Source of the DNA: a virus
Taxonomy: Duplodnaviria; Heunggongvirae; Uroviricota; Caudoviricetes
DNA length: 5,033 bases
IMG/VR virus record: IMGVR_UViG_2706794662_000015
Direction: 5' to 3' (one strand)
The position numbers and the translations under genes are program-made. This document shows, piece by piece, positions 872 to 4,469 of this stretch; positions within the stretch are counted from its first letter, which is position 1, and the number at the start of each line of letters is the position of its first letter. The notes beneath the pieces were generated by a model. It made no database searches. It was given only the letters and a program-made list of their open reading frames with translations, and was not told the DNA's origin.

Positions 872-1567
872 CTACTTAACAACCCTCGAATGGCTAACAT
901 TCGGACGCCAGCTCTCCCAGTTAAAATTCACCCAGCGCCCGCCGTTCATGACCATGCGATCCATCACCCGCTCGCCGAGCAATGTTTTCATCACCTCATA
1001 GTTCAGGTTTGTCAGCATCCCCACGCTGCGCATCGACGCTGTCCGGCGATCAACAATCTGGTGCAGCACCACCTGCTCGTTTTTCGTCTCGCGCTGAATG
1101 CCAATTTCATCAAGAACCAGCAGATCCACTTCGCACAGCTCCCGCAAAAATTTTTCGCCTGACTGCCCGTCGTCATAGCTGGCGTGCAGGGCGCTCATAA
1201 CATCAGCCACGGTAACCACAATCACTGTCTGACCGTCTTTCAGCAGGCGATTCCCGATAGCTGCCGCTAAGTGATTCTTCCCGGTACCAGGTTTTCCGCT
1301 GAACGCAAAATTTGTACACCCGGTCATCAGTTCATCGGCGATGGATTTCGCCTGGCTTAACGCGTATCGCTGGCCGTCGTTCTGCACCTGGTAATTCGCA
1401 AACGAGCATTTACGGTGCAACGGCTGGATGCCTGAGCGATTCAGAATTTTTTCCACCCGCAACTGGCGATTCAGGCGGTTGATCTCCTCGCTACGTTTCT
1501 GGCCTTCAGCAAGTTGCCACTCGCGCCACTCCGCTACCGTTCTGAATGGGGCGGTTACATGTGGCGG
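872..1567 (-). CDS. ydaV: DnaC-like AAA+ helicase loader, C-terminal 231 codons (YdaV-type prophage replication protein); 5' part cut off by the assembly gap
   Basis: Translation has Walker A (FSGKPGTGKNHLAAAIGN), Walker B (DLLVLDEIG) and a C-terminal MLTNLNYEVMKTLLGERVMDRM segment closely resembling E. coli DnaC as I remember it. Stop TGA at 872..874. The frame is continuous with the N-terminal fragment once the duplicated overlap is collapsed. Symbol assigned from family, synteny and reconstructed length (248 aa), not from a verified sequence match. Confidence 0.75.
   Translation of the reverse strand, partial: PPHVTAPFRTVAEWREWQLAEGQKRSEEINRLNRQLRVEKILNRSGIQPLHRKCSFANYQVQNDGQRYALSQAKSIADELMTGCTNFAFSGKPGTGKNHLAAAIGNRLLKDGQTVIVVTVADVMSALHASYDDGQSGEKFLRELCEVDLLVLDEIGIQRETKNEQVVLHQIVDRRTASMRSVGMLTNLNYEVMKTLLGERVMDRMVMNGGRWVNFNWESWRPNVSHSRVVK
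1363..1567. repeat. Left copy of an approx 205-bp diverged direct duplication flanking the assembly gap (about 94% identical to 1818..2022)
   Basis: Manual alignment of 1363..1567 to 1818..2022 shows about 13 mismatches, mostly synonymous in the DnaC-like reading frame. Confidence 0.85.
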
Positions 1568-1817: not shown

Positions 1818-2022
1818 CATGTCGCTGACCGTCGTTCTGCGCCCGGTAATTCGCAAACGAACACTTCCGGTGCAACGGCTGGATGCCGGAGCGGTTCAGG
1901 ATTTTTTCCACCCGCAACTGACGATTCAGGCGGTTGATCTCCTCGCAACGTTTCTGGCCTTCAGCAAGTTGCCACTCGCGCCACTCCGCAACCGTTCTGA
2001 ATGGGGCGGTTACATGTGGTGG
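1818..2022. repeat. Right copy of the approx 205-bp diverged direct duplication flanking the gap
   Basis: See 1363..1567. The same codons (…PPHVTAPFRTVAEWREWQLAEGQKR…) are encoded on both sides with a few substitutions (S/C, QV/RA, Y/H). Confidence 0.85.
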
Positions 2023-2073
2023 GGTCAGTCTGCGGATACGCTCCAGAACGCCTCCTGTCGCAATATTTTTCAT
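1818..2073 (-). CDS. ydaV: DnaC-like helicase loader, N-terminal 85 codons (MKNIATGGVLERIRRLTPPHVTAPFRTVAEWREWQ...), truncated at the gap
   Basis: ATG at 2073..2071 lies 6 nt after the initiator stop (2080..2082), preceded by AGGGGG. Collapsing the overlap with 872..1567 gives a 747-nt, 248-codon gene, the length I recall for Rac YdaV. Confidence 0.7.
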
Positions 2074-2079
2074 GGTCTG

Positions 2080-3228
2080 TTACCCCCTGAAGCCTGGCGG
2101 GATCGCACTGTCCGGCAACGAGACGGTGTTAACCTGTCGGAGCAACGTCTCAGGCCGAACACCTTTCGGCGCGAACAGACCCTGGTATTCATTGGCGATG
2201 CTGTGTCGAATCACCTGCTCAGGTGTAAAACCCTGCTGACGGAATTTTTCCAGTTCCCGTATCGCCCCGTTAGCGCCCTGCTCCGTTCGAATCGGTTTTC
2301 GCAATGCCTGCCTGAACTGGACCCACTCATGCCAGAGTGTTTCTGGCAACCAGTCGGGCAGATCAACTGACAACGGGTCAAATTTTTTCTGGCGAACAGC
2401 CCCACCGATAACCAGAATTCCCTGCTCGGTGTGCCTTGCGATATCACTGCGCCGCAAGACACATATCCCGGTTTCAACAGCACCGATTTTGAGCAGTGAT
2501 TTCTGTCGCGGAGAATTTCGGTCAAGCTCGCTCCCACACCGGACACCGTTCCTGTCAGTCACGACGATATCAATCCGCCCTCCGCAACCGTCACCACGCT
2601 CTGGCACCGGATACTCACGACAGACATCCAGGCCAGCAGCCTGCAACGCAACCACCGCAGAATTACAAAATTCCGCTGCAGTACCGCCAGATAATCTCCC
2701 CTCAAGCACTCCAGCCACAAAATCCCGAAACTCCCTTCCGGAAGGGAAGGGTTTGGGATGGGTTAGATCTGTTTTTAGATCTTTATCTGTATCTTTATTA
2801 GTTGCCTTTGTGTTGGCATCATGTTCGAACATCACTCCAACATCTGTTTGAACACCTGTTAAATTTCTCTCTTGTTTTGTTTGAACATCTGCTTCCTTTC
2901 TGCTTCTTCTGGCCTGAACAGATGCTTTTCCTGCGGCTGATTTTTTGGTTAATTTTTCTCTGACAGATGCCAGATCTTCCTCAATCCGAAGATGCATCCA
3001 TTCGTCGCCGTTATCACAAAAAAACTCCCGCAAGGATGGTTCAACATCAACCCATCGCTCGTTAGTCAGACGGGCAATTTTTGCCAACCTGTTTTTGGGT
3101 ATTGGCTTTCCTGTTTGCCAGTAATTGAACATCAGCAACAAATACGCGCCGTGCTCCTCTGCTGACAAATGCATGGTGTCAGCCAGGTAATCAGCTATGT
3201 ACAGTTGCATGTATGGTAATGCGGCCAT
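2080..3228 (-). CDS. Phage replication initiator/replisome organiser: DUF1376-like N-terminal domain, charged linker encoding ori-like repeats, central domain of unknown function, DnaT-like C-terminal domain (YdaU/lambda-O functional analogue)
   Basis: ORF track 2080..3279 (399 aa). I place the start at ATG 3228 (MAALPYMQLYIADYLADT...), which fits the usual N-terminus of this family; the upstream 17 codons are hydrophobic and lack a convincing RBS. The C-terminus ...NTVSLPDSAIPPGFRG closely resembles the C-terminus of E. coli primosomal protein DnaT as I recall it. It sits directly upstream of, and near-coupled to, the DnaC-like gene. Confidence 0.75.
   Translation of the reverse strand: MAALPYMQLYIADYLADTMHLSAEEHGAYLLLMFNYWQTGKPIPKNRLAKIARLTNERWVDVEPSLREFFCDNGDEWMHLRIEEDLASVREKLTKKSAAGKASVQARRSRKEADVQTKQERNLTGVQTDVGVMFEHDANTKATNKDTDKDLKTDLTHPKPFPSGREFRDFVAGVLEGRLSGGTAAEFCNSAVVALQAAGLDVCREYPVPERGDGCGGRIDIVVTDRNGVRCGSELDRNSPRQKSLLKIGAVETGICVLRRSDIARHTEQGILVIGGAVRQKKFDPLSVDLPDWLPETLWHEWVQFRQALRKPIRTEQGANGAIRELEKFRQQGFTPEQVIRHSIANEYQGLFAPKGVRPETLLRQVNTVSLPDSAIPPGFRG
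2761..2900. repeat. Putative replication origin inside the initiator gene: AT-rich tract with two AGATCT and three 6-bp ATCTKT repeats (2764..2796), then three copies of palindromic TGTTYGAACAYC (2821..2833, 2846..2857, 2878..2889)
   Basis: Read directly from the sequence. The segment is visibly lower in GC than the flanking coding sequence and encodes a charged, low-complexity linker (residues about 128-177). In lambdoid phages the origin iterons lie inside the O gene. Confidence 0.5.
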
Positions 3229-3291
3229 AATTGCCCCGTATGATGCTGCCCGGTTGCTTAGAATAAGCACAAACAGCATGGAAACTTTTGC

Positions 3292-3714
3292 TTAATGAAC
3301 AATGACAGAATCGTCGGAAGACCCGCCGCCGCTGAAATGCGCTTTCCGGTAAACGGCCTGGACTGCATCATCATGCGCATCAATTGCCGTACTCAACGCT
3401 TCCTGCGCCGCCAGTAATGCACGGCGTTCCAGGGTATCGAAGATGCAGAGTCGGTGACGCAGCTCGCGCGGAAGAATTGCCAGAACCGCAGGGATCAGTT
3501 TCTGAATTTTTTCCCTTTGCGCTTTCGTTTCACCTTTCAACCAACGGTGATAGATATTCTGCTGATTGTTCCAGTCCTTGCCTGGTACAAGGGGCAATTC
3601 GCCGCCCCCCTGGCGCAGATATTCTTCAGTAATTGCGTTAGCGACCCACGCCTGCCCTTTTTCGGCTGCCAGGGCTAACAACACTGATTCGATGTGCTCA
3701 TGCCTGATTTTCAT
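3292..3714 (-). CDS. ydaT: cII-like / YdaT-like prophage protein (140 aa)
   Basis: Intact ORF whose ATG (3714..3712) overlaps the upstream stop in an ATGA junction (3711..3714), indicating translational coupling. Position (after the cro-like gene, before the replication genes) and length (140 aa) match Rac YdaT. The symbol rests on synteny and length, not on a verified alignment. Confidence 0.6.
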   Translation of the reverse strand: MKIRHEHIESVLLALAAEKGQAWVANAITEEYLRQGGGELPLVPGKDWNNQQNIYHRWLKGETKAQREKIQKLIPAVLAILPRELRHRLCIFDTLERRALLAAQEALSTAIDAHDDAVQAVYRKAHFSGGGSSDDSVIVH

Positions 3715-3953
3715 GAATCAACCGCTCCTATGCTGTTTTCGCTATGCTTACCGTCTGGGGGGAATACATCGTCAAGTCCACAATGAGCGCCAAGCCGATT
3801 AAGGGTAGAAACAATTTTTCTGCACTCCTCTAGTCCAGGGGTACGAAAATTTGCTTCGTAATTTGCCAGTCGGCTTTGTATCCACCCTAACTGAACAGCA
3901 AGTTGTCTTTGAGACAGCCCAAGCTGTTTTCGATATGTTGAAATTTTGTTCAT
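3711..3953 (-). CDS. Cro-like HTH_XRE DNA-binding protein (80 aa), YdaS-like
   Basis: ATG at 3953 with GGAGG RBS 7 nt upstream. HTH signature QLGLSQRQLAVQLGWIQSRLANYEA. Divergently transcribed from the repressor gene. Confidence 0.75.
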   Translation of the reverse strand: MNKISTYRKQLGLSQRQLAVQLGWIQSRLANYEANFRTPGLEECRKIVSTLNRLGAHCGLDDVFPPDGKHSENSIGAVDS

Positions 3954-4049: not shown

Positions 4050-4469
4050 ATGGAAAAAGAAAACGAAAAAATTGCCGCTAGTAGGCTCAATGACAAAATT
4101 GCAATGCGTCTTAAAGAGCGCAGGCAGAAGCTTGGTTTATCTCAAGGAAAACTTGCTGAAATCTGCGGATGGACGCAATCGCGTATAGGTAACTATGAGG
4201 CGGGCAGCAGAAATGTTGGAGTACATGACGCTGTCGTATTGGGAAAGGCACTTGGCATATCTCCTCCTGAGCTCCTCTTTGGAGAACAGGAATCTTCTGA
4301 ATTGTGGTTAAATGAATCCCAACGAAAACTTCTTGAGTTGTTTAACCAGCTACCGGGCTCAGAACAACAACGAATGATTGAGCTATTTGAAGTCCGGCTA
4401 AAAGAAATCGATGAGTATGTAGAAAAATATTTGAGAGGCAGGATTAAAGATAATCCCCCACCGGAATAA
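4050..4469 (+). CDS. cI-like prophage repressor, HTH_XRE family (139 aa), RacR/DicA-like; no LexA-type (S24) autocleavage domain
   Basis: ATG at 4050 with AAGGA RBS (4041..4045). HTH QKLGLSQGKLAEICGWTQSRIGNYEAG is closely related to the cro-like protein's HTH. The C-terminal half is helical-looking (LLELFNQLPGSEQQRMIELFEVRLKEIDEYVEKYL) and lacks the Ala-Gly/Ser/Lys pattern of S24 peptidases. Confidence 0.75.
   Translation: MEKENEKIAASRLNDKIAMRLKERRQKLGLSQGKLAEICGWTQSRIGNYEAGSRNVGVHDAVVLGKALGISPPELLFGEQESSELWLNESQRKLLELFNQLPGSEQQRMIELFEVRLKEIDEYVEKYLRGRIKDNPPPE

Follow-up and report, generated by a model that had tools for sequence, protein, structure and literature searches.

A DnaT-type peptide at the C-terminus of a Rac-like prophage YdaU protein and its association with the loader type encoded by the next gene

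How much of the YdaU protein of a Rac-like prophage resembles the primosomal protein DnaT of Escherichia coli, and what might the common part do? The question is raised by a 5033-bp stretch of the IMG/VR virus record IMGVR_UViG_2706794662_000015 (the window, meaning this whole stretch), which is the immunity and replication region of a Rac-like prophage of E. coli. A ydaU-like gene on its minus strand (2080–3279, stop codon 2080–2082) encodes 399 amino acids (aa) and is followed by ydaV, the gene of a DnaC-type loader. The preliminary description of the window had suggested that the end of this protein and a W-rich segment before it resemble the C-terminal domain of DnaT. The residues of the open reading frame (ORF) are as given there (...LPDWLPETLWHEWVQF...RQVNTVSLPDSAIPPGFRG), and the DnaT sequence quoted there is exact, being equal to the translation of the K-12 dnaT gene. 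The label "initiator" for YdaU is based on gene position, annotation, and the analogy with lambda O. RefSeq uses the names "YdaU family protein" and "phage replication initiator YdaU family protein", and no paper on experimental work on YdaU function was found in the literature.

The resemblance to DnaT is concentrated at the very end of the protein. The last 19 residues of YdaU (RQVNTVSLPDSAIPPGFRG) and DnaT residues 161–179 (RDVNTVSEPDSQIPPGFRG) are identical at 16 of 19 positions. When the whole protein was compared with the PDB sequences by phmmer, DnaT gave the best matches (2ru8_A, E 2e-4; 9zbt_D, E 8e-4), with YdaU 307–399 aligned against DnaT 92–179; a pairwise BLASTP of YdaU and DnaT gave an E-value of 5e-10. 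When 16 tail-bearing phage C-termini were compared with the DnaT family using hhalign, only the last 23 residues aligned, with a probability of 97% and an E-value of 5e-11. These three comparisons bear out the resemblance of the C-terminal tail to DnaT. The DnaT-type tail, hereafter tail A, comprises residues 380–399 of the window protein (LRQVNTVSLPDSAIPPGFRG, 2083–2142, minus strand). Unique tails from phages (48) and from DnaT proteins (49) have a common logo, R-D-[VI]-N-x-[IVL]-S-[EQ]-P-D-x-x-I-P-x-G-F-R-G, and in neither set do P-10, I-6, P-5, G-3, F-2, or G0 vary; a few residues at most follow the final G. In the AlphaFold2 (AF2) model, tail A has no regular secondary structure, and its predicted local distance difference test (pLDDT) values are 59–72. 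Judging by these alignments, the C-terminal peptide of YdaU, R-[DQ]-V-N-x-V-S-x-P-D-x-x-I-P-x-G-F-R-G-COOH, is the same short linear motif as the end of E. coli DnaT, and the resemblance is far beyond chance.

Does the likeness extend further into the protein? Tail A is preceded by a spacer (residues 373–379, 2143–2163), which has low pLDDT and varies in length among tail-bearing homologues, and by a YdaU-type three-helix bundle (residues 303–372, 2164–2373) with pLDDT above 90. In the AF2 model of residues 293–399, the helices occupy about 313–325, 333–348, and 353–362, and the "W-rich" LPDWLPETLWHEWVQF segment lies inside the bundle. A correspondence of residues 303–399 (2083–2373) as a whole to the C-terminal (single-stranded DNA-binding) domain of DnaT, as taken up from the preliminary description, was not supported; what the two proteins share is confined to the last ~20 residues, and the bundle failed every homology test run. 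A profile of the tail-less bundle built from 129 homologues was compared by hhalign with DnaT 80–158 (P = 0.09, not significant) and with a DnaT profile extended by phage DnaT-type domains (P = 0.17). With one target, the hmmsearch of the bundle profile against DnaT 1–160 gave an E-value of 0.088, and in 2000 shuffles of the DnaT segment the real score was equalled or exceeded 264 times. PF17948, the DnaT DNA-binding domain, has no match to the YdaU C-terminus even at E ≤ 10, while E. coli DnaT itself matches it at 4e-21. No DnaT family came up at E ≤ 10 either when the last 107 or 206 residues were scanned against Pfam and NCBIfam. The comparison of the bundle with DnaT structures (fold of 4OU6/2RU8) likewise gave no match. 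Thus, within residues 303–399, the resemblance of the tail to DnaT is significant, but that of the bundle without it is at chance level, and by hhalign, hmmsearch, and PF17948 the same applies to the W-rich segment. No counterpart of the N-terminal oligomerisation domain of DnaT or of its acidic PriB-binding linker was found either: the YdaU N-terminus is DUF1376, and the phmmer and BLASTP alignments cover only DnaT 92–179. By these sequence criteria, the window protein belongs to the YdaU/DUF1376 initiator family and not to the DnaT family.

These negative comparisons bear on the idea that residues 303–399 are a very diverged DnaT C-terminal domain, whose bundle would form filaments on single-stranded DNA (ssDNA) at the melted origin and whose tail would be the best-conserved remnant. 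Several likenesses speak for it. In YdaU as in DnaT, a three-helix unit of ~65–70 residues leads through a spacer of ~10 residues to the same tail (PMC5778457), the [YL]PDW.P motif stands at the start of both bundles, and HHpred has linked the O-like protein DopC to DnaT_C (2ru8) (PMC5509034). Moreover, the place of the YdaU bundle in DUF1376 initiators can be taken by a genuine DnaT domain, so that the two are interchangeable modules. However, the similarity is not significant once the tail is removed, PF17948 is not matched, and two of the three ssDNA-base contacts of DnaT helix 2 (F124, Y127, W128; PMC4132743) align in phmmer with non-aromatic YdaU residues. In addition, three further domains with the same tail behind them clearly do not resemble DnaT. 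On balance, a diverged DnaT domain seems unlikely.

Is the tail confined to YdaU and DnaT? A degenerate DNA pattern encoding P-D-x-x-I-P-x-G-F-R-G and a stop codon was found in at least 120 viral contigs; its chance rate, by our own estimate from the information content of the pattern, is ~1 match per 1e11 bases. Every match listed forms the 3' end of an initiator-like ORF of 260–400 aa, and at least 10 N-terminal sequence types can be distinguished among the tail-A ORFs listed. When the ~100 residues before the tail were clustered, tail A was found to be preceded, among the loci listed, by five mutually unrelated domain groups. These are the YdaU-type bundle (56 proteins), a "YPxxFExxWxxYP" domain with no Pfam match (39 proteins), the lambda-O C-terminal-domain type (37 proteins), a genuine DnaT domain, and Phg_2220_C (3 proteins). 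The lambda-O-type group shares 34% identity with lambda O (E 5e-23), and the similarity stops just before the tails begin. The genuine DnaT domain was detected in 8 initiators by the DnaT-domain profile, with 7 in the cluster (PF17948, E 4e-18; DnaT-profile hidden Markov model (HMM), 1e-18 to 1e-33). Three of these initiators have a DUF1376 N-terminus, so the same tail is found in YdaU-family initiators behind one bundle or the other. The proteins of loci L007 (residues 176–249) and L122 (residues 164–237), in which a DUF1376 N-terminus is combined with a genuine DnaT DNA-binding domain (HMM E ~1e-25) and the tail, are natural YdaU–DnaT hybrids. Among annotated phages, matches that include the tail were found in Escherichia, Salmonella (Gifsy-1, Gifsy-2), and Klebsiella phages; the Burkholderia, Bordetella, and Pasteurella phages of this set have the bundle without tail A. 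Tail A, as judged from the unrelated sequences to which it is attached, is a portable C-terminal motif.

For the YdaU-type bundle itself, 2811 cluster representatives were found at E ≤ 1e-3; this widespread domain stands at the C-terminal end of initiators whose N-termini are diverse. It matches the PHROGs families phrog_6451, 18589, 678, and 2509. Several of these are labelled "primosomal protein", which presumably echoes BLAST hits to DnaT. A homologue search with the 107-aa C-terminus of the window YdaU returned only fragments of the same protein.

If the tail is portable, with what does it travel? Tail type was compared with the identity of the next gene in ~240 viral loci, including a second locus set collected by a conserved bundle motif, independently of the tail, and a small further set for one other tail. 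Among the loci listed, tail A is followed by a loader gene whose product is 39–54% identical to E. coli DnaC over the full length in 98 loci, by DUF977 in 39, and by another gene in 11. The KDYG..P.WAR tail is followed in all 28 loci by the gene of a ~290-aa Zn-ribbon AAA+ protein that is only 30–39% identical to DnaC, the HWNS..AW.DF and DFNNTDW tails in 24 of 24 loci by lambda P (PF06992), and the AWRGYL..QAY tail in 7 of 7 by a DUF3268 zinc-finger protein. Tail A was never found with lambda-P-type or other non-DnaC loaders among the ~240 loci. Bundles that are 85% identical have tail A in one phage and a lambda-type tail in another, each with the matching loader; this places exchange points between the bundle and the tail, whereas none were seen between the tail and the loader. 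Tail type, therefore, predicts the loader family of the next gene, with the caveat of genetic linkage considered below.

As regards the initiators with a YdaU-type bundle (viral loci L004–L245), at least five to six distinct short tails can be noted, each tied to one downstream family. One more tail, HTGF..K.Y..W, is followed by short AAA+ proteins of ~200 aa, and the DUF3268 zinc-finger protein is a putative loader partner. In 50 tail-A loci, no DnaC-type gene adjoins the initiator gene, and nothing like DnaC, P, the Zn-AAA+ protein, or DUF3268 is encoded anywhere in the DNA fetched for these loci. In 39 of these 50, the DUF977 gene, which in the window stands behind ydaV, lies directly behind the initiator gene, as if the loader cassette were absent. 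In phages without a DnaC-type gene, the gap between the initiator and DUF977 genes is a fixed 40 nucleotides (nt).

The loader gene of the window itself conforms to the tail-A class. The statement that a DnaC-like loader is adjacent to the initiator was confirmed, YdaV being 49% identical to DnaC over its full length; this value refers to the intact ydaV of a 99.5%-identical prophage, which encodes 248 aa and was aligned over 243 aa. The ydaU stop and the ydaV start are separated by 6 nt. The corresponding distance is 2 nt between dnaT and dnaC of E. coli K-12 and also 2 nt between the O homologue and the DnaC-like gene of Gifsy-2, while lambda O, which ends in ...LDLTNTDWIYGVDL, overlaps P by 4 nt.

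What, then, could the tail do? The reading that we prefer, with a probability of roughly 50%, is that tail A docks the DnaC-type loader or the DnaB6–DnaC6 complex. The tail would be a docking peptide that recruits the loader, or DnaB6–DnaC6, to the protein marking the loading site. For YdaU and the other phage initiators this site would be the phage origin, and for DnaT it would be the PriA/PriB-bound fork, so that the same tag would serve at restart sites. Phages with the tail but without a loader gene would recruit the DnaC of the host. The C-terminal part of lambda O recruits P, and tail A would work in a similar way; the extreme tail of lambda O would then probably be the P-binding determinant. 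The presence of the tail on five unrelated domains and its co-segregation with the loader type fit loader docking better than the binding of ssDNA or PriA/PriB. For this reason, the comparative data point away from the earlier suggestion that the initiator mimics DnaT in order to engage the restart primosome or ssDNA. The related scenario in which the phage copies DnaT to hijack PriA/PriB was ranked below loader docking, tail A being never accompanied by non-DnaC loaders.

Several points weigh against loader docking. The tail codons lie within ~60 nt of the loader gene, and linkage alone would give co-segregation at this distance, so the association could be plain genetic linkage in mosaic phages. 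Viral contigs are redundant, and the counts given above are not independent events. One third of the tail-bearing initiators have no phage loader gene, which fits the use of host DnaC and that of a different host partner equally well. The authors of the preprimosome structures favour the N-terminal domain of DnaT as the recruiter of DnaB/DnaC (PMC13377028). Finally, removal of the tail in DnaT 1–161 shifts the protein from trimers to dimers (PMC5778457), a hint of a role of the tail in self-association. If the association is mere linkage, the finding shrinks to an under-annotated, ordinary motif common to YdaU and DnaT.

The last of these points is also the evidence for another reading, according to which the tail serves the self-association or ssDNA contact of its own protein and does not recruit another one. 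An element of this kind should co-vary with the domain that it touches; instead, the tail stands on five unrelated domains and behind many N-termini, and it tracks the loader type. We regard this reading as very improbable.

The 50 tail-A initiators without a phage loader gene in the fetched locus bring in a third possibility, namely that the tail docks some other Enterobacterales host factor common to DnaT and the phage initiators, such as PriA, PriB, PriC, SSB, or DnaB, and that the phage thereby taps the restart machinery. It is close to the idea of the preliminary description. The I-P-x-G-F-R-G-COOH ending may, as we take it, loosely resemble the D-D-D-I-P-F-COOH tip of SSB, which plugs into pockets on PriA, PriC, and other proteins. 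The restriction of the tail to Enterobacterales phages in the annotated set also agrees with such a factor, as does the binding of PriA, PriB, and PriC by DnaT (PMC5778457, PMC13377028). However, a tail directed at a general host factor should also occur with lambda-P-type and other loaders, which tail A never does in the ~240 loci. In the preprimosome structures, moreover, the contact with PriA is attributed to the DnaT C-terminal domain (docked from the 84–153 crystal structure) and that with PriB to the acidic linker, with no role described for the terminal tail (PMC13377028). Another host factor, therefore, appears to be a rather unlikely partner.

What would docking of the loader mean for DnaT? 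The tail of DnaT is highly conserved; it has been described as a flexible 20-residue segment with no partner assigned (PMC5778457), and in the 2026 cryo-electron microscopy structures of the preprimosome, the DnaT C-terminal domain was modelled from the 84–153 crystal structure (PMC13377028). The handover from the restart preprimosome to DnaB–DnaC is an acknowledged gap: the recruitment of DnaB/DnaC "remains unknown" (PMC13377028), and no contact of DnaC with PriA, PriB, or DnaT has been demonstrated (PMC11087952). It is possible, though we put this forward only tentatively, that the DnaT tail is the missing DnaB/DnaC-recruitment element of the PriA–PriB–DnaT preprimosome, a phage-derived "loader address tag", and that dnaT–dnaC is a domesticated phage initiator–loader cassette. 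The origin-binding domain of such a cassette would have been swapped for a PriA/PriB-directed one. The putative address code would assign DnaT-type tails to DnaC-type loaders, lambda-type tails to P, KDYG-type tails to the Zn-ribbon AAA+ proteins, and AWRGYL-type tails to DUF3268. As a general rule, the last ~15–20 residues of an initiator might thus predict the loader of a phage, including loader-less phages, which presumably borrow host DnaC. The tie to DnaT makes the open question of replication restart directly testable. We infer that the dnaT–dnaC operon and the phage initiator–loader pairs share ancestry; shared ancestry or module exchange between them is the likely relation, and the phage is less likely to have mimicked DnaT in one direction only. 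The finding would support a phage origin for dnaT alongside dnaC.

Comparison with known systems helps to delimit the finding. Like YdaU, E. coli DnaT (primosomal protein i; 2RU8, 4OU6/7, 9ZBT/9ZBU) has the terminal ~20 residues preceded by a small three-helix unit, and its gene directly precedes that of a DnaC-type loader. The proteins differ in that YdaU has DUF1376 where DnaT has its N-terminal oligomerisation domain and in that the YdaU bundle matches neither PF17948 nor the DnaT structures. DnaT is a PriA-dependent restart factor, whereas YdaU is, by annotation, position, and analogy, the initiator of a prophage origin. With lambda O/P, the window pair shares a modular initiator whose C-terminal part recruits, or in YdaU would recruit, the loader of the next, nearly overlapping gene, and tail A is also found behind C-domains of the lambda-O type. 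However, lambda O has its own ending and pairs with P (PF06992), whereas YdaU ends in ...PDSAIPPGFRG and pairs with an AAA+ DnaC-type loader. A precedent in the literature is DopC of the DopC/DopE pair, in which Brezellec et al. (2017) noted a "DnaT_C" element: an O-like N-terminus is combined with this element (HHpred versus 2ru8_A) next to a helicase-loader-like gene (PMC5509034). DopC differs in being encoded by a domesticated chromosomal gene of other bacterial orders and in being paired with a lambda-P-related protein (PMC5509034). No paper linking YdaU or DUF1376 with DnaT, or containing the tail motif string, was found in the literature searched. What is new, as far as can be told, is that the tail is portable and that it is associated with the loader type; the motif itself is real and under-annotated, and as a C-terminal recruitment element of an initiator it would be of a known general kind.

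The rest of the window protein can be described in the same terms. We propose that the ydaU product is a modular prophage replication initiator composed of DUF1376, a low-complexity linker, the three-helix bundle, and the disordered C-terminal peptide. The DUF1376 domain (residues 22–104, 2968–3216, minus strand; PF07120, E 7e-25) is presumed to be the origin-recognition part. The Rac YdaU of E. coli K-12 (285 aa) belongs to the same family and has the same C-terminus and the same ydaT–ydaU–ydaV synteny, but the window copy differs from it by a 126-aa in-frame insertion in the linker (residues 172–297, 2389–2766, minus strand). According to BLASTP, the insertion takes the place of 12 residues of the standard 285-aa YdaU between the domains, and outside it the window protein is 90–95% identical to the 285-aa YdaU-family protein of strain IGC_EcoliInv_1.1. 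Among 5426 complete E. coli genomes, the insertion is present in only 2, and the Prokaryotic Genome Annotation Pipeline (PGAP) calls ydaU there two "partial" pseudogenes, though the reading frame is intact.

The insertion matches phrog_1347 (function unknown), and a phmmer search of the PDB sequences gave no match for it. Its AF2 model is alpha-alpha-beta-rich, but with a pLDDT of 48 it is too poor for classification. The GRIDIVV...SELD pattern is loosely reminiscent of PD-(D/E)xK nucleases, which is a speculation. The same insert, 99% identical, was found in the initiator P0020, which has a different N-terminus. In the bundle-bearing initiators P0045 (residues 135–181) and P0021 (residues 111–182), an HNH endonuclease or T5orf172/MUG113 (GIY-YIG-like) domain is located at the corresponding place, between the N-terminal domain and the bundle. 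It looks as though nuclease-type domains have repeatedly landed in the interdomain linker of bundle-type initiators.

By megablast, the window matches E. coli chromosomes in which the genes are annotated as ydaT, ydaU, and ydaV, and the Rac-type synteny is present: cI/cro-like genes, ydaT, ydaU, the DnaC-like ydaV, and DUF977. The loader gene ydaV is not intact in the window as given. Its 5' part of 85 codons (1818–2073, minus strand) matches NCBIfam PRK12377 (E 6e-47) and the DnaC equivalog PRK07952 (E 2e-19) and runs into a run of N (1568–1817). Beyond this run lies a second, diverged ydaV copy (residues 18–248, 872–1567, minus strand) that matches PRK12377 (E 8e-144) and Pfam IstB_IS21. A 198-bp repeat with 94% identity (1367–1564 and 1822–2019) flanks the 250-N run. 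Compared with the FDAARGOS_944 prophage, the sequence is 99.5% identical on the right-hand side of the run but only 89% on the left. This can be explained either by a scaffold join of two Rac-like alleles or by a true partial duplication or recombinant junction that has been masked.

Further along the minus strand, the DUF977 gene (435–857) comes after ydaV; this winged-helix protein is always encoded after the replication genes, here and in 39 viral loci (e.g., L004 and L021). On the other side of ydaU, ydaT, of the YdaT "toxin" family (3292–3714, minus strand), lies directly upstream, preceded by a cro/YdaS-like helix-turn-helix gene (3711–3953, minus strand), and the cI-like repressor gene of the immunity region occupies 4050–4469 on the plus strand. 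The ydaT and cro/YdaS-like genes overlap by 4 nt and have the same direction as ydaU, opposite to that of the cI-like gene, a layout typical of the racR/ydaS/ydaT arrangement of the Rac type.

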